From Chloroflexota bacterium (GTDB taxonomy: Bacteria > Chloroflexota > Dehalococcoidia > Dehalococcoidales > RBG-16-60-22): a stretch of 49,201 nt of DNA. Positions 3,362 through 45,622 of the stretch are shown in pieces. The notes beneath the pieces were generated by a model, which was not told the DNA's origin, ran no database searches, and saw only the letters and a list, made by a program, of their open reading frames with translations. Where the stretch lies: assembly GCA_043818095.1 (NCBI GenBank), contig JBDRGD010000104.1, positions 1-49,201 on the forward strand. The letters run 5' to 3'. Position numbers and translations under genes: made by a program. The number at the start of each line of letters is the position of its first letter. Position 1 is the first letter of the stretch.

Positions 3362-3362
3362 G

Positions 3363-4076
3363 ATGACCAGACACGGAAAGAAATACGAAGCCGCGGTGGC
3401 GCAGATTGACCGCAACGCCGCCTATACCCCGGAGGAAGCGGTCTCCCTGGCGAAGAAGACCGCCCCCGCCGCTTTTGACGAGACCGTAGAGTTGCACCTG
3501 CGCATGGGGCTGGACCCCCGGAACGCCACCCAGCAGGTCAGGGGGGTGGCTTTGCTGCCTCACGGCCTGGGGAAGCAGATACGCGTCCTCGTCTTCGCGC
3601 AGGGTGAGGCGCAGAAGATTGCGGAGACCGCCGGGGCGGACTATGCCGGCGGGGATGAACTGGTGAAAAAGGTAGAGGGCGGCTGGCTGGAGTTCGATAC
3701 CGCCATTGCCACGCCGGACATGATGAGCAGGGTAGGCAGGCTGGGTAAAGTCCTGGGCAGACGGGGCCTGATGCCCAATCCCAAGTCCGGCACCGTCGTC
3801 GCCGCGGAAGACCTGCCCCGCGTTATCGAAGACAGCCGCAAGGGCCGCGTCGAGTTCAAGCTGGACCGCACCTCCATCATTCACCTCCCCCTGGGCAAGG
3901 TCAGCTTTGAAGAGAAGACGCTGCTGGAAAACCTCACCGCCATCGTCGAAGCGGTTATGAAAGCCAAGCCCAGCGGCGCCAAGGGGCAGTATGTCCGGAG
4001 CGCTTTCCTCACCACCACCATGGGACCGGGCATCAAGCTGGACCTCCGCCCTACCCTCTCCCTGACCGCCAGCTGA
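3363..4076 (+). CDS. rplA: 50S ribosomal protein L1
   Basis: KKYEAA...DETVELHLRMGLDPR..QQVRG, an L1 signature. It starts 1 nt after the rplK stop. Confidence 0.97.
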   Translation: MTRHGKKYEAAVAQIDRNAAYTPEEAVSLAKKTAPAAFDETVELHLRMGLDPRNATQQVRGVALLPHGLGKQIRVLVFAQGEAQKIAETAGADYAGGDELVKKVEGGWLEFDTAIATPDMMSRVGRLGKVLGRRGLMPNPKSGTVVAAEDLPRVIEDSRKGRVEFKLDRTSIIHLPLGKVSFEEKTLLENLTAIVEAVMKAKPSGAKGQYVRSAFLTTTMGPGIKLDLRPTLSLTAS

Positions 4077-4262
4077 CTTTACAGGCACGCCGCGGGTGTG
4101 CTAATATTGTAGACAACTGAATAATCGTCCCGAGACAGCGGGTGCCGGAAAAGGCTTAAAGCTTGCCTGCCGAGGACTGGATAAAGCGGGTATCTCCCGA
4201 AAACAAGTCCTTGTGCGTCCGGCACGGGGACTTTTTATTTTACCGGGAACCGGAGGTGAATC
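4077..4262 (+). promoter_or_regulatory. rplJ (L10) leader region with attenuator hairpin
   Basis: 186-nt untranslated spacer between rplA and rplJ, the position of the ribosomal protein L10 leader in many bacteria. It contains a strong hairpin plus U tract immediately before the rplJ RBS (GGAGGTGA). Confidence 0.55.
4206..4241 (+). terminator. Intrinsic terminator/attenuator within the L10 leader
   Basis: 11-bp stem AGTCCTTGTGC / GCACGGGGACT (two G-U pairs), loop GTCCG, followed by TTTTTATTTT. It ends about 20 nt before the rplJ ATG. Confidence 0.55.
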
Positions 4263-4804: not shown

Positions 4805-5281
4805 ATGGCAGACGAAGTTACCGCTGAAGCAACCGCAGAAGCAGCCGCGGAAGAACCCAAGAAACCCAAGGCAGCCGCCGCGGGCAAGGCGAAGAAGTCC
4901 GCTTCCATTGACGAGCTCATGGTCACCATCAAGAACATGACCGTCATGGAGCTGGCGGACCTGGTCAAAGCGCTGGAGACGGAGTTCGGCGTGAGCGCCG
5001 CCGTACCGGTCGCCGCAGTCGCCGCCCCGGGCGCGGGGGAAGCCGGACCCGCTGCCGAAGTCGAGGAGCAGACCGAGTTCACCGTTATCCTCAAGGAAAT
5101 CGGCGCCAACAAGATTAACGTCATCAAGGCAGTGCGGGAACTGACCTCTCTCGGGCTCAAAGAGTCCAAGGACCTCGTTGAGGCCGCCCCCAAAGCGGTA
5201 AAAGAGGGCGTCAACAAGGAAGAGGCCCAGACCGCCAAGCAGAAGCTGGAAGCCGCCGGCGCTACCGCGGAAATAAAATAG
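4805..5281 (+). CDS. rplL: 50S ribosomal protein L7/L12 with about 34-aa Ala/Glu/Lys-rich N-terminal extension
   Basis: [32 protein letters not shown] is the L12 N-terminal domain, and the C-terminal domain reads [23 protein letters not shown]. Strong GGAGGGA RBS 8 nt before the ATG at 4805. Confidence 0.93.
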
Positions 5282-5320
5282 CCCCGCCGGTGGGTTTTAC
5301 CAGCGATTAGCGGGCAGAGC

Positions 5321-5398
5321 TGCCATTGCGATGAGCATAGCGGCGAAGCAATCACGCTTCCCGGGCCTGGAGATTGCTTCGCTCCGCTGGCAATGACA
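5321..5398. repeat. Two-tier palindromic REP/MITE-like element, copy 1
   Basis: Left arm GCCATTGCGATGAGCATAGCGGCGAAGCAATC, right arm GATTGCTTCGCTCCGCTGGCAATGAC. It shares the cores CATTGCGA...GAAGCAATC / GATTGCTTCG...GCAATGAC with the copies at 8593, 31270 and 32161. Confidence 0.8.
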
Positions 5399-5503
5399 TT
5401 AATGCTAACCGGACGGACCTCTCCGGTGCCCGTCTTGCAAATCGGGCGGGTTTGGTGTATGGTTTTACCACCAGAACACCTTGCCTGAGGAGACTGCGGG
5501 ACG

Positions 5504-5776
5504 ATGGCAAACGGAGAATACATCTTTCTGATTATCGTGGGGGGCGTGTTCCTGCTGCTCGGACTGGCGGCGATGTTCTGGGGGCAGCGGGAAGAAAAGG
5601 GCTATTTTAACGACCTGGCAACGCGCGCCGACGATTTGAGGGAGTTCATGGACCATTGGCCCTCCCGCCCCCAGCCCGGCGCCCTGAAACTGGGCGGCTG
5701 GCTCGCTATCACCATCGGAATACTGCTGGGCGTCCTGGGACTGATTCTACTCCTGCTGAACCAGGGCGCCATCTAG
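5504..5776 (+). CDS. Small hypothetical membrane protein (two predicted TM helices)
   Basis: 90-aa ORF with hydrophobic stretches IFLIIVGGVFLLLGLAAMFW and WLAITIGILLGVLGLILLLL. No recognisable family; weak RBS. Confidence 0.45.
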   Translation: MANGEYIFLIIVGGVFLLLGLAAMFWGQREEKGYFNDLATRADDLREFMDHWPSRPQPGALKLGGWLAITIGILLGVLGLILLLLNQGAI

Positions 5777-5785
5777 CCCGGAAGC

Positions 5786-6280
5786 TCAGTTTCCCGCCGC
5801 CGCACTCTGAAGGCTCAGTTCCTGCAGTTCCGCTTCGATGCGCAGGGCATTACCCTCCTGCTCCCGGGACGGCACTATCCTGCCGTCGCGATAGACCAGC
5901 CAGGACGCCTGCCGCCAGATTTCCGGATAGTCCCACGGGGAAACGGCCGTCATGTCCACCATCACGTTCCAGACAGTTGAGCCGTCGGTAAAGCGGACCA
6001 GCGCCACGTTCCAGTTGTCAGACGCGGCATAGAAGTCCGCCAGGTACAACTTTGCGGCCGAGCTCCCGGCGAGGGCCAGCAGGTGCTCGTAGACCGCCAG
6101 CTCCGCCTGGTCGGCGCTATTGACGGCGGCCTTCTCCGGGGGTTTCGGGGCAGGCGCCGGGGCCTCCGGGGCGGGAGCCGGGGCGGGAAACTGCTGGAAG
6201 TCTTCACACGCGCTCAGACTCAGCAGGACCAGGCCTGCCAGCACGGGAATCAAGCACCACCGGACAAAAGACTGTCTCAT
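5786..6280 (-). CDS. Hypothetical lipoprotein
   Basis: Signal peptide with lipobox LLSLSAC followed by a PAPAPAPEAPAPAPKPP linker. Strong GGAGGTGA RBS upstream on the minus strand. It sits directly downstream of the comM-like gene. Confidence 0.7.
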   Translation of the reverse strand: MRQSFVRWCLIPVLAGLVLLSLSACEDFQQFPAPAPAPEAPAPAPKPPEKAAVNSADQAELAVYEHLLALAGSSAAKLYLADFYAASDNWNVALVRFTDGSTVWNVMVDMTAVSPWDYPEIWRQASWLVYRDGRIVPSREQEGNALRIEAELQELSLQSAAAGN

Positions 6281-6301
6281 TTTCCTCTCACCTCCTGCCT
6301 C

Positions 6302-7822
6302 TCACTCCGTCCGCCGCGGGCGGTACTGGATGGCCTCGGCGACGTGGTGCGCCTTTATCACCTCTGCGCCCTCCAGGTCGGCAATCGTCAGCGCCAGCTT
6401 GAGCACCCGGTGGAAGGCGCGCGCGGAGAGATAAAGCTGCTTCATCGCCGTCTTGAGCAGGCCCTGCGCGGCGTCCTCCACCCGGCAGAACTCGCGGATT
6501 TCCCCGGGCCGCATCTCGGCGTTACAGGTCAGGCGGCTGCCGGCAAAACGCCGCAGTTGTACCTCCCGGGCGGCCTGCACCCGCGCCCGCACCGCTTTCG
6601 ACGGCTCGCCGAGGCGGTCGTCCGCCAGCTTCTCGTAATCGATGCGCGGCACCTCCGCGAAGATGTCCACCCGGTCCAGGAAAGGCCCGCTGATGCGGTG
6701 CTGGTAGCGGGAGACCATGCCCGGAGAGCAGGTGCAGGGACGGAAGGCATCGCCGTAATATCCGCAGGGGCAGGGGTTCATCGCCCCCACCAGCATGAAA
6801 TGGGCGGGAAAAGTGAACGTGCCCTGCGCGCGGCTGATGGTCACCACGCCGTCTTCCAGCGGCTGGCGCAGCACCTCCAGCAGGGAATGCCCGAACTCCG
6901 GCAGCTCGTCCAGGAAGAGGACGCCGCGGTGGCTCAGGCTGATTTCCCCCGGATGGGGCACGCGCCCCCCGCCCACCAGCCCCACGTCCGAGATGGTGTA
7001 ATGCGGGGCACGGAAGGGACGCTGCCGGACCAGGGGCGTTTCCGGCGGCAGCAGCCCGCCGACGCTGTAAATCTTGGTCACCTCCAGGGCCTCCGCCGCG
7101 GTCATCGGGGGCAGCACGGAAGGCAGCGCCCGCGCCAGCAGGGTCTTGCCGCTGCCCGGCGGCCCGGACATAATCATGTTGTGCCCGCCTGCGGCCGCCA
7201 CCTCGAGGGCGCGCTTGACGTGCTCCTGCCCTTTAATGAAGGAGAGGTCCGTCATCTCGGGAGCAGGCGACGGGTCGTCCGCCAGCGCGGCCTTGGCCGG
7301 CTCCGGCGCCGGTATCTCCCCCCGCAGGTACTCGGTCAGCCGGGAAAGCGTGGCGAAGGGGATGATTTTCACACCGTCCACCAGGGACGCCTCCCGGGCG
7401 TCAGCTTCCGGCACGATGACCGCGGGGACACCTTCCTCACGCGCCAGGATGACCATCGGCAGCACGCCGTTGGTGTGCCGCAGGCCGCCGTCCAGGGAAA
7501 GCTCGCCCAGGAAAAGCACACCATTGACATCGGCGGACACCTGCCCGGAACTCATGAGGATACCGAGGGCGATGGGCAAATCATAAGAAGGCCCCGCCTT
7601 TTTCAGGTCCGCCGGGGCGAGGTTGACGATGACGCGTTTCATGGGGAAGGTGCCGCCGGAGTTGCGTATCGCCGCGCGGACCCTTTCTTTCGCCTCCTGG
7701 ACGGCCGCGTCCGGCAACCCGACAATCGTAAAGGAGGGCAGCCCCGGAGCGATGTCCACCTCAGCCTCCACCACCCTGCCCTCCAGCCCCACGATGGCGG
7801 CGGTCCTCACCTTAGCCAGCAT
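6302..7822 (-). CDS. comM: YifB/ComM family Mg-chelatase-like ATPase
   Basis: MLAKVRTAAIVGLEGRVVEAEVDI N-terminus, Walker A MSGPPGSGKT, Walker B VLFLDELPEF, C-terminal ChlI-like domain. The start is M253 of track ORF 6302..8578; GGAGG RBS. Confidence 0.9.
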   Translation of the reverse strand: MLAKVRTAAIVGLEGRVVEAEVDIAPGLPSFTIVGLPDAAVQEAKERVRAAIRNSGGTFPMKRVIVNLAPADLKKAGPSYDLPIALGILMSSGQVSADVNGVLFLGELSLDGGLRHTNGVLPMVILAREEGVPAVIVPEADAREASLVDGVKIIPFATLSRLTEYLRGEIPAPEPAKAALADDPSPAPEMTDLSFIKGQEHVKRALEVAAAGGHNMIMSGPPGSGKTLLARALPSVLPPMTAAEALEVTKIYSVGGLLPPETPLVRQRPFRAPHYTISDVGLVGGGRVPHPGEISLSHRGVLFLDELPEFGHSLLEVLRQPLEDGVVTISRAQGTFTFPAHFMLVGAMNPCPCGYYGDAFRPCTCSPGMVSRYQHRISGPFLDRVDIFAEVPRIDYEKLADDRLGEPSKAVRARVQAAREVQLRRFAGSRLTCNAEMRPGEIREFCRVEDAAQGLLKTAMKQLYLSARAFHRVLKLALTIADLEGAEVIKAHHVAEAIQYRPRRTE

Positions 7823-7893
7823 TGGAATCCTCCCGCCCTTTAACCACGGACTCATTGTAACGGAAACCGCCGGGAGTGGCAAACGTGGGGATA

Positions 7894-8484
7894 CTAGGCA
7901 ATCAGGCCGAAAAAATGAAAGACGGCGAGCATGGCCGCCGCGGAAAGCGCCGCCCCCGCCGCCACCTGTGCCGGGGTATGGTGCTCCAGTTCCACACGCG
8001 ACCAGGCCATCACGGGCAGGAGCACCAGGGTAAAAAGAATTCCCGGCACCCGGTACATGATGATAAGCAGCATCAGTGACGCCGCCAGGAAACCGGTGTG
8101 CACACTGATTTTCCACCAGAGATTGATGCACAGATAGAGCCCGATCGCCAGGAGGGCGGTAACGAAAGCGGCCAGAAGCTCCCGCGGCGCGCCGAGGTAG
8201 TACAGTATCCCGATGCTCACCAGGACACAGACACTTGCCAGGAGATAAATCCTGTGCCGCTGCTGGCGGGCGCGGATAAAGATGCCCTCCAGCTTTTCGT
8301 TGTGCACCAGGACCAGGATAACCACCAGCACCGGCAGGATGCTGAAAGCGACGGACAGCAGGGACCACTTGAGCCCCTCTGCGAAGCTGGCGGCGTGGCG
8401 GAAAGAAAGCAGCACAATCATCACCAGACTGATGGAAAAGGGATTGATGATGTCCGAAACCAGCCGCGCGATTTTTCTTCTCAT
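7894..8484 (-). CDS. PAP2 superfamily (phosphatidic acid phosphatase type 2-like) membrane protein
   Basis: Multi-TM protein with the PAP2 C2/C3 motifs ISVHTG and WSRVELEHHTPAQVAAG. The start is set at M45 (MRRKIARL) because the upstream part of the track ORF runs into the palindromic repeat. Confidence 0.75.
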   Translation of the reverse strand: MRRKIARLVSDIINPFSISLVMIVLLSFRHAASFAEGLKWSLLSVAFSILPVLVVILVLVHNEKLEGIFIRARQQRHRIYLLASVCVLVSIGILYYLGAPRELLAAFVTALLAIGLYLCINLWWKISVHTGFLAASLMLLIIMYRVPGILFTLVLLPVMAWSRVELEHHTPAQVAAGAALSAAAMLAVFHFFGLIA

Positions 8485-8592
8485 CGTAGTCAGGCGGGAC
8501 CTGCTGTAAAATCCCCACGCCCATGATACCACAGCATCCCGGAATCCTGCATGTCCCCGGGAGCAGTCTCTTACACAATCCTGGTTGTCGCC

Positions 8593-25154: not shown

Positions 25155-26675
25155 ATGCCAAAAACAGACCCCGTACAGAAAAAGGCTGACATGTTGAAGT
25201 GGCAGCCGGACCCGACGGCGGTGCAGCTCATCCCGGAGGTGATGGCGCGTAAATATAACGCCATGCCTCTGGCCGTTGAAGATGATACCCTGCGGGTGGC
25301 GATGGCCAATCCTACCGATATCTTCGCCCTGGAAGCCATGGCCAGCCACAGCCAGATGCGTGTTGAGCCGGAAGCCGCCGGTCTGGAAGAAATCCTCGAA
25401 GCAATCGATTTCAACTACAAAGCCTACGATGAGATTGAGAAGCAGGTCTCCAACATTTCCCTGCAGGGGGGGCAGGCGACCATCGACCCGTTTAAAATCG
25501 AGTCCACGGTGGACGCTCCCGTGGCCCAGGCGCTCTCCCTCATCATCGATGAAGCGGTCAAGGCGCGCACCTCGGACATCCACCTGCAGCCGGAGGAAGA
25601 CAAGCTGCGGGTGCGCTACCGCATCGACGGCAGCCTCCATGACATGTTCTCCCTCCCCCTGGCGACGGCCACCCCCCTGGTCTCCCGGATTAAAGTCCTC
25701 GCCAGCATGAACATCGCGGACCACCACCGCCCCCAGGACGGGCAGTTTTCCATCAAGACGAACAACCGGCTGATTGATATCCGCGTCGCCACCATCGCTA
25801 CCGTTTACGGCGAGATGGCGGTCCTGCGGCTCCTGGACAAGCGCCGGGCGACCCTCACCCTGCCGGAGTTGGGCTTCCTCCACGGCAGCCTGGAGAAATA
25901 CGAAAGCATGCTGAAGGTGCCCTACGGCATGCTCCTGGTCAGCGGTCCTACGGGCGCCGGGAAGACCACCACCCTCTATGCCTCGCTGAACACCCTGGAC
26001 CGGGTGGCGCGGAACATCATCACCATCGAAGACCCGGTGGAGTACCGCTTCAAGAACATTAACCAGATACAGGTCAATCCCCGCTCGGGGATTACTTTCG
26101 CCAGCGGCCTGCGTTCCATACTGCGGCTGGACCCGGACGTCGTCCTCGTCGGCGAGATACGGGACGCGGAGACGGCGAACATCGCCGTCCAGGCGGCGCT
26201 CACCGGCCACCTGGTGCTCTCCTCCATCCACGCCAATGACGCCATCGGCGTCGTCATGCGCCTCGTGGACCTGGGGGTAGAGCCCTTCCTGGTGTCCTCC
26301 GCCCTCATCGGCGTCGTCGCTCAGCGGATGGTGCGCCAGATATGCCCCAACTGCGGCCGCCCCGTCGAGGTGCCGACTATCGAGCAGATAAGCTACGCCC
26401 GGGAAACCGGGGAAGACCGGCACGAGTTCCACTATGGCGCCGGCTGCAACGCTTGCTCCAATAGCGGCTACCGGGGACGCACCGGTATTTTCGAAATACT
26501 CGCCATCAGCGATGCCATCAGGACGATGATACTGAAGGAAGCGACCGCCACCGAACTGCACAGCCAGGCGATTAAAGAAGGCATGCTGACCCTGATGCGG
26601 GACGGCATGCTTAAGGTCAAGGAAAACATCACCACCCCGAGCGAGGTCCTGCGCAACGCTTACACGGTGGAATAG
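25155..26675 (+). CDS. pilB: Type IV pilus assembly ATPase PilB (GspE family)
   Basis: T2SSE N-terminal domain (ARKYNAMPLAVEDDTLRVAMANPTD), Walker A SGPTGAGKTTT, Asp and His boxes, and a tetracysteine motif CPNCG...CNACSNSGYRGRTG. Confidence 0.93.
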   Translation: MPKTDPVQKKADMLKWQPDPTAVQLIPEVMARKYNAMPLAVEDDTLRVAMANPTDIFALEAMASHSQMRVEPEAAGLEEILEAIDFNYKAYDEIEKQVSNISLQGGQATIDPFKIESTVDAPVAQALSLIIDEAVKARTSDIHLQPEEDKLRVRYRIDGSLHDMFSLPLATATPLVSRIKVLASMNIADHHRPQDGQFSIKTNNRLIDIRVATIATVYGEMAVLRLLDKRRATLTLPELGFLHGSLEKYESMLKVPYGMLLVSGPTGAGKTTTLYASLNTLDRVARNIITIEDPVEYRFKNINQIQVNPRSGITFASGLRSILRLDPDVVLVGEIRDAETANIAVQAALTGHLVLSSIHANDAIGVVMRLVDLGVEPFLVSSALIGVVAQRMVRQICPNCGRPVEVPTIEQISYARETGEDRHEFHYGAGCNACSNSGYRGRTGIFEILAISDAIRTMILKEATATELHSQAIKEGMLTLMRDGMLKVKENITTPSEVLRNAYTVE

Positions 26676-26701
26676 GCACAGCCGCGGAGACAGCAGAAAA
26701 A

Positions 26702-27907
26702 ATGATTTTCGAATACGTTGCCTACAATACCAGCGGAGAAGTGGTCAAGGGCAGACTGCCCGCCAGCAACGAGGACACCGCCAGTGACCTCCTGGGCTAC
26801 GCGGGCTACAAGACCATCACCATCAGGCCGTATGTCCCCTTTTTCAGTTCCGACCGGCTTTCCGCCGAGTTTTTCCGGGTAAAACCATCGGAAGTCATCC
26901 TGTTCTATCGCCAGCTGGCGCTGCTGCTGGAGTCCGGCATCAACATTGTCACCTCCCTGGAGCTGTTACTCGGGCAGACCGCCAACCGGGCGATGAAAAA
27001 GGTGCTGGAAGACATCATCAGTGACCTCAGGCGCGGCAACCAGCTCTCCGCCGCCATGGGCAAACACCCGGAGGTTTTCCCGCCCATCAGCTGCCGGACT
27101 TTGAGCATCGGCGAGCAGACCGGCGGACTGGAGGAGATGCTCCGGCAGATGGCAGACTACCTGGAGAAGGAACAGGAAGCCAGCAAGGGCATCAAGAGCG
27201 CCCTGATGTACCCTATCATCGCCGCCGTGGTCACCGTGATCGTCGTGGTGATAATGGCCGTCTTCGTGCTTCCCGCCTTCAGCGACCTTTACAGTTCCCT
27301 GGGCGCGGAAATGCCGGCGTTGACCCGCTTCGTCATTGACGGCGCGAACAAGCTCCGCGAAAACGGGCTTATCATCATGTTGGGACTGGTTGTCGGCGGC
27401 GGCCTGCTGGCGGCGTACGTGAAGACCCCGGAAGGGAAATTCCGCATGGATAAATTGGCCTTAGAGCTGCCCCTGATAGGCAGGGTGAACCAAATTAGCG
27501 GTCTATCCCGCATGTGCCGGAGCATCTCCCTGCTCTTCCGCTCCGGGCTTCCCCTCACCGAGATTATGCCCCTGATCATCCAGGGCACCGGCAACCGGGT
27601 GATGGCGGAAGCCCTGAAAGACGTCCAGCAGGAGATGCTGCGCGGCCACGGGCTTTCCCAGCCCATGCAGAAGAACCAGGTCTTCCTGCCCATGATGGTG
27701 CAGATGGTCAAGGTAGGCGAGGAAACGGGTAACCTGGACATCACCCTGCTCTCCGTCGCCCAGAGCTACGAGACGGAGGCGGAAGACGCCACCCGCTCCC
27801 TCATCGGCATGATTCAGCCGGCAATGACGCTCATCATCGCGGTTATCGTGGGGGTCATCGCCATGTCGCTGGTCTCCGCCATGTACTCCATCTACGGGCA
27901 GACATAA
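26702..27907 (+). CDS. pilC: Type IV pilus platform protein PilC (GspF family)
   Basis: 401 aa with duplicated T2SSF domains (FYRQLALLLESGINI and MCRSISLLFRSGLPL) and three TM segments. Confidence 0.92.
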   Translation: MIFEYVAYNTSGEVVKGRLPASNEDTASDLLGYAGYKTITIRPYVPFFSSDRLSAEFFRVKPSEVILFYRQLALLLESGINIVTSLELLLGQTANRAMKKVLEDIISDLRRGNQLSAAMGKHPEVFPPISCRTLSIGEQTGGLEEMLRQMADYLEKEQEASKGIKSALMYPIIAAVVTVIVVVIMAVFVLPAFSDLYSSLGAEMPALTRFVIDGANKLRENGLIIMLGLVVGGGLLAAYVKTPEGKFRMDKLALELPLIGRVNQISGLSRMCRSISLLFRSGLPLTEIMPLIIQGTGNRVMAEALKDVQQEMLRGHGLSQPMQKNQVFLPMMVQMVKVGEETGNLDITLLSVAQSYETEAEDATRSLIGMIQPAMTLIIAVIVGVIAMSLVSAMYSIYGQT

Positions 27908-27949
27908 GAAGAATTAACGCAGTACCGAAAAGGCACAAGGAGCATAACG

Positions 27950-28570
27950 TTGAAACTGGGAAGAACTAGCTGGGTCATCCTGATACTGGGGGTGCTCATC
28001 ATCGCCTTCGGCAGCCTGGGGATAGCGCGCGCCCAGCAGGTTGAGGAGCGGAAACAGATTTCGGAAGACCTCACCATCGCGGAAAAACGCCTGACAAACC
28101 TGCAACTCCGGGAGCTGCAATCGCAAAAGCTCAACCTGGAGCAGGGGCTGGAACAGGAGAAATATCTGCTGGATAACGCCCGCATCGCGCTGGACCAGAC
28201 GATTGACAGCATCCCCGTCACGGACGAGCTGTTCGTCATCGCCGCCGCCACTAGGGTTAAGATCATGGAGCTTACCTCCACGGGCGTCAAAAACGGGGAC
28301 TTTCAGGACGTCCCGGTAACCGTAATCAAACTGAACATCACGGCGGACGGGGAAGTGCTCGACCTGATTAACTTCGTCACCCGGCTGAATACCGACATTC
28401 CCACGGGGGCGGTCCAGTCCGTGGATATCGCCACCGAGGAACTGGATGTGGAGGACGTGGAGGCCGGGACCTCCGGCAGCGAGAACGTCACGGTGGAAGA
28501 GGAGGAGGAAGAAGCCATCCCCCGCGCCCGTATCGCCATGGATATTTACAGCTACAGTAAGGATAACTGA
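27950..28570 (+). CDS. PilO-like type IV pilus assembly protein
   Basis: N-terminal TM WVILILGVLIIAFGSLGIA, a coiled-coil segment, a C-terminal alpha/beta domain, and an acidic tail (EEEEEE). TTG start with an AAGGAG RBS 7 nt upstream. The family assignment rests on architecture and context only. Confidence 0.55.
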   Translation: MKLGRTSWVILILGVLIIAFGSLGIARAQQVEERKQISEDLTIAEKRLTNLQLRELQSQKLNLEQGLEQEKYLLDNARIALDQTIDSIPVTDELFVIAAATRVKIMELTSTGVKNGDFQDVPVTVIKLNITADGEVLDLINFVTRLNTDIPTGAVQSVDIATEELDVEDVEAGTSGSENVTVEEEEEEAIPRARIAMDIYSYSKDN

Positions 28571-28572
28571 CG

Positions 28573-30078
28573 ATGACAGGTAAACTGGTAACTCTCTATA
28601 TTGATAATACGCAGATAAAGCTGCTGGTTACCGGCGGCAAGCGCATCAAGAAGATGGCGGAGCTGCGCTTGGAGCTCACCTCGCGGAAAATCAGCGCGGG
28701 AGAGAGAGAGGCGGAAATCGCCAGCAAGATCCAGCAGCTGCTCACCGCCAAGAAAGTCAGCGCCTCGAAAATCATCCTCGGCTTAAGCGGGCTACACTGC
28801 CTGACCCGCCCCTTCTCCCTGCCCCAGCTGCCCAAGACGATGCAGACAGAAGCGGTCATGCGCGAAGCGAAGAGGGTCCTCCCGGTGCCCATAGACCAGC
28901 TTTATATCTCCTGGCAGATTTTCCCGGGAATAACGGAAGGACAATCCCGGGGCTTTCTCGTGGGGATACCGCGCAAGACCGCGGACATGTACGTTAACGT
29001 ATTGCGGCGGGCAGGGCTTAAGCCCTACCTCGTGGACTTGAAGCCGCTGGCCATCTGCCGCCTGGTCCAGGATGATACTGCCATCGTCGTGGACATCCAG
29101 CCGGCGGATTTTGACATCGTCGTGATGAGCAAAGGCATCCCCCAGCCTATCCGGACTGTTTCCTTCCCCCAGGAAAATCTGCCCCAGGAAGAGAAACTGG
29201 CGCTGGTCAAAGAGGAAATCACCCGGACAATCGATTTCTATAACGCGAACAGCGAAGAAGGCCAGATAAACAAGAACGTGCCCCTGTACGTTTCCGGGGA
29301 ACTGGATGACGTCACGGAGGCCGCCACCAGCCTGTCCGGAGACCTGGGTCTGACCCTGAAGGAGCTGGCCTCCCCGCTGAAATGCCCCAAGGAACTGGAC
29401 CCCTCCCATTACCTGGTGAACATCGGGCTGGCGTTGAAGGAAATGGTCACGGAAAAAGAACCGGCCTTTTCCCTGGTAAATATCAACGCCCTCCCCACTC
29501 CCTACCGCCCCAAACCCCTGCCGCTGATGAAACTCCTCAGCGTTCCGGTGGCGGTATCCGTGGTCGGCATCATCACCTTGATGGGGATGTTCGTCTATAA
29601 CGCTTCCGCCAGCATCGCCGCAGCGCGCACAGAACTGGACACCACCAACCAGATAATCGAGACCCGGCAGACCCAGAAGGAAGAGCTTACGAAAACCATC
29701 GCCGGTCTGGAGACAAAGATTTCCCAGACCAAGGCAGCCACCCGGACCTTCCTGACGGTGCAGAACCTGATTGACCGACAGGGCGGTCTGATTAATGGCG
29801 ACCTGTCGACCTCCGCAGCCCAGCTGATTGCCGATATGCAGTTGACCGGCATCAACCACAGTAACGGCGCGCTGACCATCCGGGGCAGCACCCTCACCGA
29901 GGAGGAAATCCTCACCTACGCCCGCCGGCTGGAACAGAGCGGCCGCTTCGGTGCCGTGAACATCTCCAACATCCTCCGGGTAGTAAACGAGGAGGAAACG
30001 GAGGTCGGAATAGAGACTACTGAGACCATGACGTTCACTATCGCTCTCGAACCGGAGAAAGAAACTGAAGAAGAATAG
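28573..30078 (+). CDS. PilM-PilN fusion protein (actin-like ATPase fold + TM + coiled coil + extra C-terminal domain)
   Basis: The N-terminal 300 aa or so are PilM-like (LYIDNTQIKLLV, ILGLSG, DIQPADFDIVVM, ITRTIDFYNAN). These are followed by the PilN-like NINALPTPYRPKP motif, the TM LLSVPVAVSVVGIITLMGMFVY, a coiled coil, and a 110-aa C-terminal domain. Confidence 0.8.
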   Translation: MTGKLVTLYIDNTQIKLLVTGGKRIKKMAELRLELTSRKISAGEREAEIASKIQQLLTAKKVSASKIILGLSGLHCLTRPFSLPQLPKTMQTEAVMREAKRVLPVPIDQLYISWQIFPGITEGQSRGFLVGIPRKTADMYVNVLRRAGLKPYLVDLKPLAICRLVQDDTAIVVDIQPADFDIVVMSKGIPQPIRTVSFPQENLPQEEKLALVKEEITRTIDFYNANSEEGQINKNVPLYVSGELDDVTEAATSLSGDLGLTLKELASPLKCPKELDPSHYLVNIGLALKEMVTEKEPAFSLVNINALPTPYRPKPLPLMKLLSVPVAVSVVGIITLMGMFVYNASASIAAARTELDTTNQIIETRQTQKEELTKTIAGLETKISQTKAATRTFLTVQNLIDRQGGLINGDLSTSAAQLIADMQLTGINHSNGALTIRGSTLTEEEILTYARRLEQSGRFGAVNISNILRVVNEEETEVGIETTETMTFTIALEPEKETEEE

Positions 30079-30081
30079 CTG

Positions 30082-31206
30082 ATGGACATTTTTGAGATAC
30101 TGCGCCTAGCCAAGGAAAAGGGGGCTTCCGACCTGCACATGGTCTGCTCCGTCCCGCCGCTCTTCCGCGTCCACGGTGATATCCGCCCGGCGGAGGGTCT
30201 GCCGGTGCTGCGCGGCATGGACATGGAGCAGGCTTTCCAGCATTTAACCACGGAAGCCCAGCAGGCGGACTTCCAGCGTAACCTGGAGCTGGACTTCGGC
30301 TACGATGTCCCGGAAGTAGGCAGGGTCCGCTGTAACGCCGCCCGGCAGAGGGGCACCATCAGCATGGTTATCCGCCTCCTGCCACCCGACATCCCCGAAC
30401 TGGAGCAGCTGGGTGTCCCCGACGTCTGCAAGGAGCTGGTATTGAAACGGCGCGGGCTGGTGATGGTCAGCGGCCCCACCGGCAGCGGTAAGTCCACCAC
30501 CCTGGCCGCCATGATTAACTACCTGAACCACACGGAGTACCGGCGGGTGGTCACCATGGAAGACCCCATCGAGTACGTTTACCAGAGCGCCAACTGTACC
30601 ATCACCCAGCGGGAGCTGGGCGCGGATACTCACTCCTTCGCCGACGCCCTGAAGCACGTCCTGAGACAGGACCCGGATGTCATCCTCGTCGGCGAACTGC
30701 GTGACCTGGAGACCGCCTCCGCGGCATTGACCGTCGCGGAAACGGGCCACCTTGTCCTCACCACCGGCCACGCCCCCAGCGCCGCCCAGGCAATCGAAAG
30801 AATCACCGACCTGTTTCCGCCCCACGAGCGCCACATGGCGCAGTCCCAGTTGGCTTCGCTCCTCGTCGGGATACTCTGCCAGGCGCTGGTACCGAAGACC
30901 GACGGCTCCGGCCGGGTCGCAGCGGTTGAGGTGCTCCTGGCAAACTCGGCGGTGAGGAACCTGATACGGGACGGCAAGGTTTTCCAGATTCCTAACGCCA
31001 TGCGGATGCACACCCAGGCGGGGATGCAGCTCCTCGACCAGTCGCTCCTCAAGCTCTTCCGCAAGGGTATCATCAGCAGCGACAGCCTGTTTTCCTTCTG
31101 CAACGACAAGGAGGAAATCGCCAAGCTGTCCGGCATGGAAGTGCCCGCCGCGCACGCCTCGCTGGAGCAGGCATCCGAAGAGAGCGTCGCCAGCGGCCTC
31201 TTCTAA
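30082..31206 (+). CDS. pilT: Type IV pilus retraction ATPase PilT
   Basis: 374 aa with GASDLHM, Walker A SGPTGSGKSTT, Walker B/Asp box VILVGELRD, His box LVLTTGHAPSA, and the PilT-type AIRNLIRDGK-like motif AVRNLIRDGK. Confidence 0.93.
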   Translation: MDIFEILRLAKEKGASDLHMVCSVPPLFRVHGDIRPAEGLPVLRGMDMEQAFQHLTTEAQQADFQRNLELDFGYDVPEVGRVRCNAARQRGTISMVIRLLPPDIPELEQLGVPDVCKELVLKRRGLVMVSGPTGSGKSTTLAAMINYLNHTEYRRVVTMEDPIEYVYQSANCTITQRELGADTHSFADALKHVLRQDPDVILVGELRDLETASAALTVAETGHLVLTTGHAPSAAQAIERITDLFPPHERHMAQSQLASLLVGILCQALVPKTDGSGRVAAVEVLLANSAVRNLIRDGKVFQIPNAMRMHTQAGMQLLDQSLLKLFRKGIISSDSLFSFCNDKEEIAKLSGMEVPAAHASLEQASEESVASGLF

Positions 31207-31269
31207 CAACCCCTCAAAACCGGGTACTTCCGGGGAAACTCTACTTTTTCCCCAGCAGGCTTACCCTCT

Positions 31270-31340
31270 GTCATGGCGAGGGGCGTGCCAGCCCCGCGCG
31301 CAATCCCATTTAAAGTTTGCTTCGCTGCGCTCGTAATGAC
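31270..31340. repeat. Two-tier palindromic REP/MITE-like element, copy 3 (degenerate)
   Basis: GTCATGGCGAGGGGCG...GCGCAATC ... TTGCTTCGCTGCGCTCGTAATGAC. It is recognisably related to the other three copies but carries substitutions in both arms. Confidence 0.6.
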
Positions 31341-31394
31341 TGGATAAAAACCCCGGGACAGAAAGCACCGGGGTAATGCGAATCCTCTGTCGGT

Positions 31395-31443
31395 GAAAAA
31401 CAGAAAGCCTGCCGGTGGGGATATCCCCATTGCCGGTCAGGCT
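31395..31443 (-). terminator. Intrinsic terminator downstream of the pilin gene
   Basis: About 15 bp of pairing: outer AGCCTG/CAGGCT, middle CCGG/CCGG, inner TGGGG-ATAT-CCCCA. On the minus strand it is followed by TTTCTGTTTTT. It lies 73 nt after the pilin stop. Confidence 0.55.
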
Positions 31444-31515
31444 CTCCGCTCCGTTGCTATCGTTAAATTTATTTCTTCTCTTAAACTATGCCGTCGCTAA
31501 CGGCGGCGCTATCTG

Positions 31516-31893
31516 TTATGGTACAACCTGCGATACCGTGCCGTCATTGGCGAAGGAATAGGTGCAAGGGGTTTTCACACTGGTACCGTTTAAGCCGGTC
31601 AGGTAATCGCTGAGAATCAGCCCGTCGGTGGACAGAACGGTAGACATGTCAACAACCCCAGGGCCGATCGGCGTCAGGTTGCCCGCGGTGCTGTCCGCCA
31701 GCATGGCCATCACGGCCGTCTGGATGTTGTGGAGCTCAGTCTCGTAAGACTCCGTTTTACCCTTGCCGATGAATTTACCGACGTTCGGGACGGCTACTGC
31801 GGCCAGGACGCCCAGGATGGCTACGACAACCAGCAGCTCGATGAGGGTGAAACCCTTCTCGCCATAATGGAACTGCTTCAAAATCTTCTTCAT
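31516..31893 (-). CDS. Type IV pilin (prepilin with class III signal peptide)
   Basis: MKKILKQFHYGEKG|FTLIELLVVVAILGVLAAVAVP. It has Gly at -1, Phe at +1, Glu at +5 and a hydrophobic alpha1 helix. 125 aa, GGAGG RBS. Confidence 0.9.
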   Translation of the reverse strand: MKKILKQFHYGEKGFTLIELLVVVAILGVLAAVAVPNVGKFIGKGKTESYETELHNIQTAVMAMLADSTAGNLTPIGPGVVDMSTVLSTDGLILSDYLTGLNGTSVKTPCTYSFANDGTVSQVVP

Positions 31894-32160
31894 TCAGGCA
31901 CCTCCGTTGATATTTTTTTCCTTTTGAACTTGTTCCCAATTCAGCTTAGCATAACGGGATTTGTATTCAATGGGGTTTTAGTCACCCCCCGGCATGAGAA
32001 TAAAGTCCTACATATCTGCTCCCCTCCTTTTTGGTCACGGTGATACTTTACCCCCGGAAGGCTTAACCGCCCATAAACGAAAGGGGGTGTTTCGTAAATA
32101 TTCCGTGAATATTGGCTCTTCCTCTTGACGCTCCTGGCAGCCCTCAAAGGTGTTGTGTTT

Positions 32161-32238
32161 GTCATTGCGAGGAGCGTAGCGACGAAGCAATCTCCTTTCC
32201 CGGATTGAGGATTGCTTCGCCTTCGGCTCGCAATGACA
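32161..32238. repeat. Two-tier palindromic REP/MITE-like element, copy 4
   Basis: GTCATTGCGAGGAGCGTAGCGACGAAGCAATC ... GATTGCTTCGCCTTCGGCTCGCAATGAC, located between the divergent pilin and pilD genes. Confidence 0.85.
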
Positions 32239-32318
32239 GCACCACCAACCGCATACAAATAGAAATCCGTAAAAGACGGGTTGACGCGCCCCGGGGAAAA
32301 GGGGCAAAATAGGACAAC

Positions 32319-33116
32319 ATGGAAGCCGTGCTGACGATACTGTTCATCCTGGGGGGGATTGCCATCGGCAGTTTCCTCAACGTCCTCATTGACCGACTTC
32401 CGGCGGGAGAGTCCATCGCCTATCCCCCCTCCCACTGCGCCGACTGCCAGCACAAGCTGGCGCCGTGGGACCTCATCCCCATCTTCAGCTACCTCTGGCT
32501 GCGGGGCCGCTGCCGCTACTGCCGCGCGCAGATACCCTTGCGGCTGCCGCTGATAGAAGCGGGTACCGGTCTCCTCTTCTGGCTCGCCTTCTGGCGCTAC
32601 GGGCTAAGCGCCGAGTTCGCCCTGACCGCCCTGTACACCGGCGTCTTCATCATTATTATTTTCATTGACATGGAGCGACAGCTCATCCTGAACAAGGTGC
32701 TTTACCCCGCCGCCCTGTTCACCGTCCTGCTGTACCTGGCGGACATCTGGCTGCCCGCGCCGGGGCTCTTCCCGGCATTTCGTTACCTCCCCGCCATCAA
32801 GGTGGTCAGCAGCCTTATCGGCGGAGTGACGGGTTTCCTCTTCTTCTTCATCGTTTACGTCCTCGCCCGGGGCGGTATGGGCGCGGGAGACGTCAAGCTG
32901 GCAGGGTTCATCGGCCTGGTCGCCGGTTTCCCGCTGGTCTTCCCGGCGCTCTTCATCGGCATCGTCGCCGGCGGGCTGGTCGCCATCATTTTCCTTCTCC
33001 TGCGGAAAAAGGGCCGCAAGGAAGTCCTCCCCTACGGGGCTTTCCTGGGCATCGGGCCCATCATCACGCTGCTCTGGGGACAGGCAATCATGGACTGGTA
33101 CCTCCACCTCTTTTAG
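32319..33116 (+). CDS. pilD: Prepilin peptidase PilD (A24 family aspartic protease/N-methyltransferase)
   Basis: N-terminal CxxC...CxxC (HCADCQH, RCRYCRAQI), polytopic membrane topology, and the active-site Asp motif GMGAGDVKLAGFIG. Confidence 0.92.
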   Translation: MEAVLTILFILGGIAIGSFLNVLIDRLPAGESIAYPPSHCADCQHKLAPWDLIPIFSYLWLRGRCRYCRAQIPLRLPLIEAGTGLLFWLAFWRYGLSAEFALTALYTGVFIIIIFIDMERQLILNKVLYPAALFTVLLYLADIWLPAPGLFPAFRYLPAIKVVSSLIGGVTGFLFFFIVYVLARGGMGAGDVKLAGFIGLVAGFPLVFPALFIGIVAGGLVAIIFLLLRKKGRKEVLPYGAFLGIGPIITLLWGQAIMDWYLHLF

Positions 33117-44499: not shown

Positions 44500-44724
44500 A
44501 TGGTCACCAAAGAGAAGATTGAAGACGCCCTGAAGGCTATCCGGCCCGCATTGAACGCGGACGGGGGGGACGTGGAACTCGTCGACGTGGAGGACGGGGT
44601 GGTCAAGGTACGCCTGACCGGCGCCTGCGGCGGCTGTCCGATGGCCACGCTGACGCTGCGGCAGGGCGTAGAGCGCGTTCTCCGGGAAAAGGTCCCCGAT
44701 TTGAAAGAAGTCGTCGCTGTCTAG
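44500..44724 (+). CDS. NifU-like (Nfu C-terminal domain) Fe-S cluster protein
   Basis: 74 aa. IRPALNADGGDVELVDVEDGVVKVRLTGACGGCPMATLTL is the Nfu/NifU C-terminal domain with its CxxC. AAGGAGG RBS. Confidence 0.88.
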   Translation: MVTKEKIEDALKAIRPALNADGGDVELVDVEDGVVKVRLTGACGGCPMATLTLRQGVERVLREKVPDLKEVVAV

Positions 44725-44748
44725 GGACCGGGAGGAGAGGCATTAACG

Positions 44749-45576
44749 GTGAAAGGACTATCGAGAGTCGGTATCATCATTGTCGTGGGGCTGGGAGTTC
44801 TCGCTGCCGCCCTGGCCGGTTTCCGGGGAGCCCGTGAGGAGGAAAACACGATGAACGCTGCCAGCGAACCGACCGCCGGGATACCGCCGATGGATATGAA
44901 CGTCCCCGTAAAATTCGCCACCGCCACCTTTGCCCTGGGCTGATTCTGGGGACCTGACTCCCGGTTTGGGAGTTTAGACGGCGTTATCCGGACCCGCGTG
45001 GGCTACTCCGGCGGCGCGACGGTAAACCCCGACTACGAAAACGTCGGCGACCACTCGGAGACGGTAGAGGTGGACTACGACCCGACGCGTATTAGCTACG
45101 AGCAGATTCTGGAGGTCTTCTGGCAGAGCCATGACGCCATCGGCCCGGTATGGTCACCGCAATACCGCTCCGCAATCTTCTACCAGGACGCCGCCCAGAA
45201 GGAAGCGGCGGAGCATATGAAGGCGCTCCTGGAAGAGGAGAAGGGCACGGAACTGAATACGGCCATCATCCCCTTGGAGAAGTTTTACCTGGCGGAAGGT
45301 TATCACCAGAAATACGAACTGCGCCTCGCCGGCGTAATAGCTAACGAGTATCTGGCGATGTATCCGCGCATGGAGGACTTTATCAACTCCACGGCGGTCA
45401 CCCGCGCCAACGCCTACGCCGGCGGTAACGGCTCTCCGGAGCAACTGGAAAAAGACATCGGCCAGCTGGGGCTGTCACCGGCGGCACAGGAAAAGCTGCG
45501 GGACCAGTTCAGCGCAATGGTCGAGATAGGGGCGGGCTGGTGCCCGCCGCCGCTCGCGGAAGCCCCGGCGCCGTAG
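44749..45576 (+). CDS. msrA: Peptide methionine (S)-S-oxide reductase MsrA, probable selenoprotein (in-frame TGA at 44941-44943 read as Sec), with N-terminal membrane anchor
   Basis: Track ORFs 44749..44943 and 44998..45576 are in the same frame and are separated only by one TGA. Read-through gives ATFALG-U-FWGPDSRFGSLDGVIRTRVGYSGG, which is the GCFWG active site with TGA at the Cys position. Downstream MsrA blocks are GDHSETVEVDYDP, QYRSAIFY and FYLAEGYHQKY. GTG start with a GGGAGGAG RBS. Confidence 0.75.
44954..44977 (+). promoter_or_regulatory. SECIS-like hairpin downstream of the msrA UGA
   Basis: Upper stem ACUCCC/GGGAGU (44957-44962 pairing with 44968-44973), loop GGUUU, a bulged U at 44974, and a lower stem CUG/UAG with one G-U pair. 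The hairpin base starts 11 nt after the UGA. Confidence 0.5.
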
Positions 45577-45593: not shown

Positions 45594-45622
45594 ATCGGGG
45601 GCGAGGCAAACTCGCCCCCGAT
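45594..45622. terminator. Strong hairpin between convergent msrA and ridA-like genes (probable terminator)
   Basis: Perfect 12-bp stem ATCGGGGGCGAG / CTCGCCCCCGAT with loop GCAAA, followed on the plus strand by the pyrimidine/T-rich TCTCCTCTTCC. It is preceded by a small AT hairpin CGATAAA-GTT-TTTATCG. Confidence 0.5.

Follow-up and report, generated by a model that had tools for sequence, protein, structure and literature searches.

Within the 49,201-nucleotide window analysed here, which comprises a whole contig of a Dehalococcoidia-like Chloroflexota bacterium, an ORF scan reveals two forward-strand open reading frames in identical frame, 44749..44943 (GTG start, 64 amino acids) and 44998..45576 (192 amino acids). 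The sole stop separating them is the TGA at 44941-44943, which confirms the coordinates and the frame given in a preliminary description of this DNA. Translation across the TGA yields ...VKFATATFALG-[TGA]-FWGPDSRFGSLDGVIRTRVGYSGG... and leaves the later MsrA blocks GDHSETVEVDYDP, QYRSAIFY and FYLAEGYHQKY unbroken. The complete read-through ORF (44749..45576, plus strand), referred to as msrA in the following, comprises 275 codons including that of the proposed selenocysteine (Sec65) and ends with the TAG at 45574-45576; its GC3 is of the coding type on either side of the TGA. The read-through protein matches the Pfam family PMSR (PF01625, E 9e-42) as well as the NCBIfam model TIGR00401 for msrA (120.6 bits compared to a cut-off of 108.1). 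The catalytic PMSR domain defined by the Pfam match extends over residues 58-190 (44920..45318, plus strand) and is followed by a C-terminal helical domain of the CoMsrA type (residues ~194-249; 45328..45495, plus strand) recognised by alignment with the CoMsrA sequence. Taken together with the comparative data described below, we consider it very likely that 44749-45576 is one gene which codes for a 275-residue Sec-containing peptide-methionine (S)-S-oxide reductase (MsrA) of the CoMsrA type with a SECIS-decoded UGA at residue 65. MsrA selenoproteins are of an established kind, and the window gene is a further member of this known selenoenzyme family.

Genomic surroundings of msrA

A Shine-Dalgarno-like sequence (GGGAGGAGAGG; 44730..44740, plus strand), read directly from the DNA, ends 8 nt 5' of the GTG start and is situated directly 3' of the TAG stop (44722-44724) of an nfu-like gene. 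This NifU-like (Nfu) gene (44500..44724, plus strand; PF01106, E 5.7e-30), which ends 24 nt 5' of the msrA start, is probably co-transcribed with msrA and is not kept beside msrA at other loci. On the other side, a 12-bp inverted repeat, ATCGGGGGCGAG-gcaaa-CTCGCCCCCGAT (45594..45622), likewise read from the sequence, lies between msrA and a convergent RidA-like gene and is possibly a bidirectional terminator; a rule-based terminator scan missed it since it has no T-run. With Nfu-like and RidA-like genes as neighbours, the window harbours no thioredoxin-like reductant and no CcdA/DsbD fused or adjacent to msrA. Nor is any redox-partner neighbour conserved, each neighbour family being limited to at most 6 of the 77 loci.

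Neither the 49 kb window nor any of 38 related loci contains a tRNA-Sec gene, and no SelA, SelB or SelD domain is found among 40 window proteins. All same-frame ORF pairs of the window which are split by a single TGA were scanned and provided no credible candidate for a further selenoprotein gene: a ComM-like ORF was rejected because of its normal end, and so was 5282-5776, which represents a small transmembrane protein preceded by a non-coding stretch.

The in-frame TGA and the hairpin following it

The TGA at 44941..44943 (plus strand) occupies the catalytic position of the G-U-F-W-G motif. In alignments its column coincides with the catalytic Cys of GCFWG in the MsrA chains of the PDB and in genomic relatives, and in an alignment of 23 proteins the surrounding Gly64, Phe66 and Trp67 are invariant, in agreement with the earlier claim that TGA replaces the catalytic Cys codon. 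Genomes and metagenomes together provided 80 homologous genes with TGA at the catalytic codon and 8 with TGY. The TGA-bearing homologues include those of the three closest GTDB genomes (Gemmataceae, Slackia heliotrinireducens and Dehalococcoidia MAGs), while MsrA genes farther from the window gene have TGT or TGC at this codon. Such a recurrence is far beyond chance. Gene callers mishandle these genes, as had been anticipated: an impossible “W” stands at the catalytic position in 23 of the 120 best-matching database homologues, and for the one whose DNA was inspected, P0012, the underlying codon proved to be TGA. Within the window TGA ends 10 of 46 genes, the conserved nusG among them, and hence serves as an ordinary stop in a host that uses the standard genetic code. 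Chloroflexi include known selenoprotein users (PMC1794560), and we count the affiliation of the host to Chloroflexota/Dehalococcoidia, as indicated by the UvrC encoded in the window, in favour of a Sec-MsrA.

The preliminary description had called Sec-containing MsrAs rare. This holds for MsrA overall, as published surveys find the Sec form infrequently (9 Sec versus 4,678 Cys homologues in the GOS survey; PMC2398784), but not for the CoMsrA-like clade, in which, of the 80 metagenomic relatives that are nearest, about 75 show TGA at the catalytic codon. Judged by its catalytic codons, the Sec form is the norm within this clade and not the exception.

A check of 44941-45000 for a bacterial SECIS (bSECIS) had been recommended, and a hairpin of suitable properties is present at 44956..44974 (plus strand; GACUCCC-GGUUU-GGGAGUU, stem 44956-62/44968-74, loop 44963-67). 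Published bSECIS criteria comprise a loop of 3-9 nt with G in its first two positions, a stem of 4-16 bp, a distance of 16-37 nt from the UGA and a minimum free energy of ≤ -7.5 kcal/mol (PMC13188914). Located 19 nt after the UGA, with a 5-nt loop (GGUUU) starting with GG, a stem of 7 bp and -9.9 kcal/mol, the window hairpin falls within every one of these limits. A compliant hairpin with a spacing of 18-20 nt and a GUU-containing loop is present in 76 of 77 TGA-type genes, although only 54 of the 77 reach -7.5 kcal/mol or less if the bare hairpin is scored. Its stem positions are paired in 86.7% of cells, compared to 30-53% in slid-register controls, and double-sided (compensatory) stem changes number 12 versus 1.9 expected, a count attained in none of 500 shuffles. 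The third codon positions within the hairpin have an entropy of 0.0-0.3 bits, whereas flanking Gly/Pro codons reach 1.8-1.9 bits. These frozen synonymous sites are confined to TGA-type genes: for Gly9, 70 of 74 TGA-type genes use the codon GGG, compared to only 2 of 8 Cys-type genes (p = 1.5e-5), the latter being a small comparison set of which three are haloarchaeal. On these grounds, the hairpin is SECIS-compliant and evidently under evolutionary constraint at the RNA level.

Folding energy as such is not distinctive, with a z-score of about 0 over the 50-60 nt 3' of the TGA; as this coding region has a GC content of 60%, the z-score is uninformative and the comparative tests were used instead. 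RNAalifold did not recover the window hairpin in its consensus but gave a weak alternative rich in GU and devoid of covariation (-2.28 kcal/mol), which we rejected as a SECIS. An Rfam scan at gathering and at permissive thresholds gave chance matches only and no match to a SECIS family; Rfam holds no model for the in-ORF element.

The reading of TGA 44941-44943 as a Sec codon, already suggested in the preliminary description, is strongly supported by sequence comparison and almost certainly correct, given that CoMsrA is the nearest characterised relative, that dozens of orthologues retain the TGA together with the hairpin and that TGA otherwise acts as a stop. A Cys-type msrA whose TGC or TGT has turned into TGA, in reality or as a sequencing or assembly artefact, would leave a gene that is dead or mis-read. 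Such an origin would need the exchange of just one nucleotide and would accord with the lack of Sec machinery within the 49 kb window. The window gene, however, has the full synonymous signature of TGA-type genes in its hairpin (UCC-CGG-UUU-GGG-AGU), which is missing from Cys-type genes and would not be produced by a recent error in one of them. Since, in addition, the TGA is common to 80 homologues and the gene contains no further stops or frameshifts while all catalytic residues are intact, we regard a pseudogene or an error as highly improbable; the intactness of the later MsrA blocks had been put forward against a decaying pseudogene from the outset.

No more probable are two separate products, namely a 64-residue membrane peptide ending at the TGA and a truncated MsrA-like protein which starts from GTG 44998 and is devoid of the catalytic residue. 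Standard ORF calling leads to precisely this outcome and, as Sec insertion at a UGA is invariably in competition with termination, some 64-residue product is to be expected under limiting selenium. Yet the downstream ORF, which lacks the GCFWG site and the first β-strand, has its other catalytic residues conserved, the region from the TGA to GTG 44998 is conserved as coding in all homologues, and Cys-type homologues are single continuous proteins that share this N-terminal architecture. Least probable of all, in our view, is the decoding of TGA as a standard amino acid, be it by reassignment of the codon (to Trp as in code 4 or to Gly as in code 25) or by efficient near-cognate read-through. 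While the “W” which some gene callers place at the catalytic site of homologues would fit, such decoding conflicts with the use of TGA as a stop within the window, nusG included, and with the occurrence of TGA-type genes in unrelated phyla using the standard code. Moreover, Trp or Gly in place of the nucleophile would abolish MsrA chemistry, and the conserved 3' hairpin is a hallmark of SelB-dependent recoding.

N-terminal segment and tail cysteine

Hydropathy and homology predict residues 1-25 of the protein (MKGLSRVGIIIVVGLGVLAAALAGF; 44749..44823, plus strand) to be a signal peptide or membrane anchor. Lys2 and Arg6 are followed by a hydrophobic 12-mer with a Kyte-Doolittle maximum of 3.1; a lipobox Cys is lacking, and an A-L-A|G motif is a possible cleavage site. 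The segment is homologous to N-termini which end in a lipobox, e.g. those of the relatives L133 (MIGLTRVTKIVVVGVSVVVLALGGLLAAC) and P0008. According to heuristic scoring, 65 of the 77 Sec-type genes encode a comparable hydrophobic N-terminal segment, accompanied by a lipobox in no fewer than 29 cases, and one relative scores above the cut-off of the TAT signal model TIGR01409 (17.5 compared to 16.7), with two others just under it. These features point to a likely export or anchor signal in the window MsrA, which is probably membrane-anchored, and the majority of the Sec-MsrA clade appear to possess N-terminal signal, lipoprotein or Tat-like sequences. An internal ATG (Met35, 44851-44853), preceded by GAGGAGGA (44836-44843; together 44836..44853, plus strand), might serve as an alternative start giving rise to a cytoplasmic isoform. 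An ATG 24-41 codons 5' of the TGA occurs in 61 of 77 Sec-type genes, but a Shine-Dalgarno-like motif accompanies only 34 of these 61; in view of this mixed support we mention the dual-isoform idea as an aside only.

The protein's sole cysteine, Cys265 (TGC, 45541..45543, plus strand), resides in a Pro-rich C-terminal tail (GAGWCPPPLAEAPAP) and may be regarded as a candidate resolving residue. A tail Cys, often within a C-P-x-P-like motif, is found in 10 of 70 complete Sec-type genes, while 60 of the 70 clade members have none; a core Cys is absent from 58 of 70. Because of Cys265 the window protein does not conform to the 1-Cys type and represents a minority sub-variant. Neither the N-terminal signal or anchor nor the single tail Cys had been remarked on in the preliminary description.

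Relation to characterised enzymes, proposed mechanism and implications

The best PDB matches of the read-through protein are the CoMsrA structures 4U66, 4LWJ-M and 7C13 (E 7e-54), which are Cys versions of the natural selenoprotein from Clostridium (Alkaliphilus) oremlandii OhILAs. Window residues 53-249 align without gaps to residues 4-200 (of 209) of CoMsrA, i.e. to its catalytic and helical domains, with about 50% identity across both, and residue 65 corresponds to CoMsrA residue 16. The two proteins have in common the Sec at the GUFWG position (proposed in the window protein), the C-terminal helical domain and identical active-site residues, which map onto U65, F66, W67, Y96, E104, Q138, Y139, H186 and Y189 and are all conserved. 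CoMsrA is reportedly also the subject of a study by Kim et al. from 2009. In its natural Sec form CoMsrA is 20-fold more active than in its Cys form (PMC4333827, PMC4479559), and the helical domain formed by its residues 145-209 is indispensable and specific to certain selenoprotein MsrAs (PMC4333827). The differences concern the host, a Clostridium in the case of CoMsrA and a Dehalococcoidia-like Chloroflexota in the present case, as well as both termini. CoMsrA is a cytosolic protein of 209 amino acids which begins four residues ahead of the first β-strand, whereas in the window protein an N-terminal extension of 52 residues contains the predicted signal or anchor together with a conserved IPP(I/M)D motif. 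Furthermore, CoMsrA, which contains no Cys, is of the 1-Cys type and is regenerated by glutaredoxin and through dimerisation, while the C-terminal Pro-rich tail of the window protein carries its only Cys.

Catalogued bacterial Sec-MsrAs (Syntrophobacter fumaroxidans, GOS marine sequences and the GUFWG/H family; PMC1794560, PMC2398784, PMC13188914) belong to the same selenoprotein family and resemble the window gene in the position of the Cys/Sec pair and in an in-ORF bSECIS. In the literature searched we found no description of export signals for the Sec-MsrA family. Extracytoplasmic Msr systems of the Cys type are known from Neisseria (PilB), Streptococcus pneumoniae (MsrAB2 with the Etrx1/2 lipoproteins and CcdA) and Haemophilus influenzae (periplasmic MsrAB) (PMC3914529, PMC9404787). 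The likeness to these lies in the predicted extracytoplasmic location by means of a signal peptide, lipoprotein or transmembrane anchor and in the MsrB-MsrA fusions found among clade members (L138, L148). In contrast to the proposed catalytic Sec of the window protein, these systems use a catalytic Cys; they also have fused or adjacent thioredoxin-like partners and CcdA/DsbD electron supply, whereas no such partner is adjacent to msrA here or at related loci. The 3-Cys MsrAs of Escherichia coli and cattle carry their recycling cysteine or cysteines on a flexible C-terminal tail, a location comparable to that of Cys265, which may play such a role in the window protein; they differ in having a catalytic Cys, in lacking the helical domain and in being reduced by thioredoxin.

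In the mechanism we propose, the hairpin at 44956-44974 within the coding sequence would act as bacterial SECIS during translation and, while the ribosome pauses at UGA 44941-44943, recruit SelB-GTP-Sec-tRNA(Sec) to it, which would lead to the insertion of Sec at residue 65 of the G-U-F-W-G active site. The selenolate would attack methionine-S-sulfoxide, upon which Met would be released and a selenenic acid left behind. Residues 1-25 may direct the enzyme to the outer side of the cytoplasmic membrane or anchor it there, and Cys265 might resolve the selenenic acid to a selenenylsulfide, to be reduced subsequently by a thiol reductant. Beyond the individual gene, we tentatively suggest, with slightly less than even confidence, a large undescribed environmental clade of exported Sec-MsrAs (lipoproteins, Tat/Sec substrates and membrane-anchored forms) which would serve anaerobes in methionine sulfoxide repair beyond the cytoplasm and use Sec by default. 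In a subset including the window gene, a newly acquired Cys in a C-terminal C-P-x-P tail would form a selenenylsulfide, thereby converting the 1-Cys mechanism of CoMsrA to a Sec/Cys two-residue mechanism with an extracytoplasmic reductant.

If most of these enzymes are indeed exported or anchored, selenium-dependent extracytoplasmic methionine repair would be widespread in anaerobic environmental bacteria, which would raise the question of what reduces the selenenic acid or the selenenylsulfide outside the cell. Meanwhile, public protein databases list the window gene and dozens of its relatives in truncated or split form or with Trp in the active site, and as a consequence the use of selenium by Chloroflexota and by sediment communities is undercounted.

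Reading frame and relation to CoMsrA

An ORF of 64 codons with a GTG start (44749..44943) and an ORF of 192 codons (44998..45576) lie in the identical frame of the window, and re-reading of the sequence agrees with the preliminary description in that the TGA at 44941-44943 is the sole stop separating them. Reading through this codon yields an ORF of 275 codons (44749-45576, forward strand; ...FATATFALG-[TGA]-FWGPDSRFGSLDGVIRTRVGYSGG...) which ends with TAG at 45574-45576, and the GC content by codon position displays a coding-like pattern on both sides of the TGA. With Cys put in for the TGA, residues 58-190 of the translated protein match Pfam PMSR (PF01625) with an E value of 9e-42, and the MsrA equivalog-domain model NCBIfam TIGR00401 is passed with 120.6 bits at a cut-off of 108.1. 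Between msrA and the convergent RidA-like gene a perfect 12-bp inverted repeat is present at 45594-45622 (ATCGGGGGCGAG/CTCGCCCCCGAT, loop GCAAA), which is not called by a rule-based terminator scan because it is not accompanied by a T-run.

The best solved structures for the window protein (4U66, 7C13 and 4LWJ-4LWM; E 7e-54) are those of Cys versions of CoMsrA, the natural selenoprotein MsrA of Clostridium (Alkaliphilus) oremlandii (PMC4333827, PMC4479559). CoMsrA, an enzyme of 209 aa, carries Sec at residue 16 and is otherwise free of Cys ("1-Cys type"); the activity of the Sec form exceeds that of the Cys form 20-fold, and regeneration of the enzyme is accomplished by glutaredoxin, not by thioredoxin (PMC4333827, PMC4479559). 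Window residues 53-249 align without gaps to residues 4-200 of the chains, and this alignment sets the TGA opposite the Cys of "falgCfwgpd", confirming its earlier assignment to the catalytic position. At a constant offset of 49, C16, F17, W18, Y47, E55, Q89, Y90, H137 and Y140 of CoMsrA correspond to U65, F66, W67, Y96, E104, Q138, Y139, H186 and Y189 of the window protein. Judged from the alignment and this residue mapping, the gene encodes a two-domain CoMsrA-type MsrA whose active site is intact apart from the TGA.

Recurrence of the TGA and the hairpin following it

When one genome per GTDB species was scanned, no close relative of the window MsrA emerged, the best match being 54% identical. 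The three nearest matches, which originate from MAGs of a Gemmataceae member, of Slackia heliotrinireducens and of a Dehalococcoidia member, all have TGA as catalytic codon, while TGT or TGC is present in haloarchaeal and more distant MsrAs. Among the 80 best loci kept from a metagenome scan with the subfamily alignment as query, about 75 have TGA at this position; all fetched loci together comprise 80 TGA versus 8 TGY genes. In the 120 best clusters kept from a collection of 5.8 billion proteins, the catalytic residue is C in 96 cases, "W" (GWFWG) in 23 and S in one. P0012, the only "W" protein examined as DNA, has the codon TGA followed by a hairpin as in the window gene and is therefore a TGA gene to which code 4 was applied in translation. 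The other 22 entries (P0003, P0006, P0009, P0014, P0017, P0022, P0026, P0030, P0032, P0035, P0036, P0038, P0039, P0041, P0042, P0053, P0073, P0075, P0084, P0092, P0112 and P0116), together with which the DNA locus L081 (510-512) is listed, are most likely likewise Sec genes which gene calling with code 4 has mistranslated, the GWFWG entries then representing a database artefact which conceals selenoproteins.

In the window gene, the UGA is followed after 19 nt by the hairpin GACUCCC-GGUUU-GGGAGUU (44956-44974) with 7 bp, a 5-nt loop beginning with GG and -9.9 kcal/mol. It agrees in every respect with the bacterial SECIS model, which calls for a loop of 3-9 nt, an upper stem of 4-16 bp, G in the first two loop positions, a UGA-to-loop distance of 16-37 nt and an MFE <= -7.5 kcal/mol (PMC13188914). 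By thermodynamics alone the region following the TGA is not distinct from shuffled sequence (z ~0), and the RNAalifold consensus is a weak alternative structure and not this hairpin; hence, we rely on comparative tests. A compliant hairpin with a spacing of 18-20 nt and a GUU-containing loop is found in 76 of 77 TGA-type genes, whereas the Cys-type genes, a small set of eight, show scattered hairpins only, two of them at <= -7.5 kcal/mol. In the ungapped alignment of 74 distinct TGA-type 60-mers from the 80 TGA genes, which are related and from which the helix itself was derived, 86.7% of the cells are paired compared to 30-53% with the 3' arm slid by 1-3 nt. Both helix sides are changed in 12 cells versus 1.9 in shuffles (0/500), with paired changes such as C-G to A-U (eight sequences) and U-A to G-U or G-C (four); several of them come with amino-acid changes. 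Third-position entropy in the hairpin codons of the TGA-type genes amounts to 0.00-0.30 bits (Ser/Ala xCC in 74/74, Gly GGG in 70/74), compared to 1.8-1.9 bits in the directly flanking Gly and Pro codons. Gly9 is GGG in 70/74 TGA-type versus 2/8 Cys-type genes (Fisher p = 1.5e-5), and codon 6 ends with C in 74/74 versus 5/8 (p = 6e-4). The synonymous constraint in the hairpin is thus specific to TGA-type genes.

The codon signature also bears on the possibility that a Cys-type gene acquired its TGA by a recent error from TGC: the window gene has the full TGA-type signature, which argues against such an error. TGA terminates ten of the 46 window genes (TAA 19, TAG 17) and is therefore a normal stop in the window. 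Taken together with the homology to CoMsrA, the recurrence of TGA and the conserved hairpin, this supports the preliminary proposal of a selenoprotein, and we consider it very probable that the window gene is a genuine msrA decoded with Sec.

The window is a piece of ordinary chromosome with three tRNAs, tuf, nusG, rplKAJL with L10 leader, RF1/PrmC, ETF, EF-G, a TRAP transporter, type IV pilus genes, UvrC and others. Its UvrC shares 62-68% identity with Chloroflexota, Dehalococcoidia or Dehalococcoidales proteins. Chloroflexi include selenoprotein users (PMC1794560); in the 49,201-bp window, which is the whole contig, neither selA, selB, selD nor tRNA-Sec is present. Unusually, TGA is the least-used stop although the contig has 60.6% GC and TGA is normally dominant in GC-rich genomes. 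In the 4805-8578 region, the rplKAJL cluster (L10 leader 4111-4246) continues without rpoB/rpoC: beyond rplL there is a small ORF with two TM segments (5504-5776), while the opposite strand contains an unannotated ORF of 164 aa and a ComM/Mg-chelatase-like gene of 758 aa that is extended N-terminally by 270 residues. A type IV pilus or T2SS-like cluster (25155-33116), here in a Dehalococcoidia-like genome, comprises a PilB-like ATPase, PilC-like, PilN-like and PilT-like proteins, a prepilin with N-methylation motif and a prepilin peptidase.

Putative export signals, tail cysteine and gene neighbourhood

The window protein has 52 residues preceding the start of CoMsrA. Its N-terminus (MKGLSRVGIIIVVGLGVLAAALAGF) consists of a positive n-region and a hydrophobic segment of 18-19 residues, followed by an acidic linker and a conserved IPP(M/I)D..P motif. 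Putative N-terminal hydrophobic signals are encoded at 44749-44823 of the window and 5' of the TGA in most of the homologous loci (L003, L081-L162). In the 77 distinct Sec-type genes, a TM-like segment occurs in 65, a lipobox in at least 29 and a twin-arginine motif in about 12 (e.g. SRRSLMK...ISAC); a curated TAT-signal model finds one relative above and two just below its cut-off. These features suggest a clade of exported or lipoprotein selenoenzymes. The window N-terminus has homologous counterparts in family members whose hydrophobic segment closes with a lipobox (...LLAAC in L133, ...ILTGC in P0008, ...ALAGC in P0012); lacking a lipobox Cys, the window protein would itself carry a cleaved signal peptide (possibly cleaved between A-L-A and G) or a signal anchor. 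About 30 codons before Sec, a conserved internal Met (ATG 44851, 44836-44853 region), preceded by GAGGAGGA, could serve as alternative start for a cytoplasmic isoform. Of 77 relatives, 61 have an ATG between -24 and -41 codons, 32 of them exactly at -33, and an SD-like motif accompanies it in only 34 of the 61. Ahead of the catalytic domain, IPP(I/M)D..AP is nearly invariant clade-wide (I45-P-P-M-D49 in the window, 44881-44895; columns ~87-91 of alignment A2), D49 being invariant and P46 conserved to >= 90%; CoMsrA begins downstream of this motif and hence does not contain it.

Like CoMsrA, 58 of the 70 complete Sec-type genes have no core Cys. The only Cys of the window protein, Cys265 (45541-45543), lies in a Pro-rich tail (GWCPPP). 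A tail Cys is present in 10/70 complete Sec-type genes, often in a C-P-x-P-like context (GCALP, GCAVP, FCPVP, YCPTP, TCPVP), the loci listed besides the window being L094, L099, L107, L110, L122, L123, L135 and L150. The MsrAs of E. coli and cattle carry recycling cysteines on the tail and, by analogy, Cys265 is a plausible candidate for the resolving residue. Neither a thioredoxin-like, CcdA or DsbD partner nor a sel gene adjoins msrA in the window or is conserved in the related loci, the commonest neighbour family occurring in 6/77 of these. In L138 (~3350-4061) and L148 (~2980-3660), the Sec-type MsrA is located 3' of a signal/anchor and MsrB, forming an MsrB-MsrA(U) fusion. Four other loci (e.g. 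L140:395-1504) contain a separate Cys-type signal-MsrA-MsrB gene just upstream of Sec-msrA. The window MsrA domain also weakly matches the MsrA-like part of NCBIfam NF041383 ("VPGUxxT family thioredoxin-like (seleno)protein, type 2"), and there is thus a curated selenoprotein family in which a Sec-Trx module is fused to an MsrA domain. This fusion may bear on the question of which reductant serves Sec-MsrA.

Place within the Sec-MsrA family

The Sec-MsrAs with their GUFWG/H motif form an established family of bacterial selenoproteins (PMC13188914), catalogued in Syntrophobacter fumaroxidans (PMC1794560) and represented in the GOS data by 9 Sec versus 4,678 Cys homologues (PMC2398784). As Sec-MsrA has already been characterised (C. 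oremlandii) and catalogued, the window gene is a further member of this family and no new kind of system. The literature searched contains no description of TGA dominance in a CoMsrA-like environmental clade, nor of the prevalence of export signals or a tail-Cys sub-variant in Sec-MsrAs; on a heuristic basis, these traits appear to go beyond it. The value of the finding lies in the correction of the annotation and in an entry point to a clade of probably extracytoplasmic selenoenzymes.
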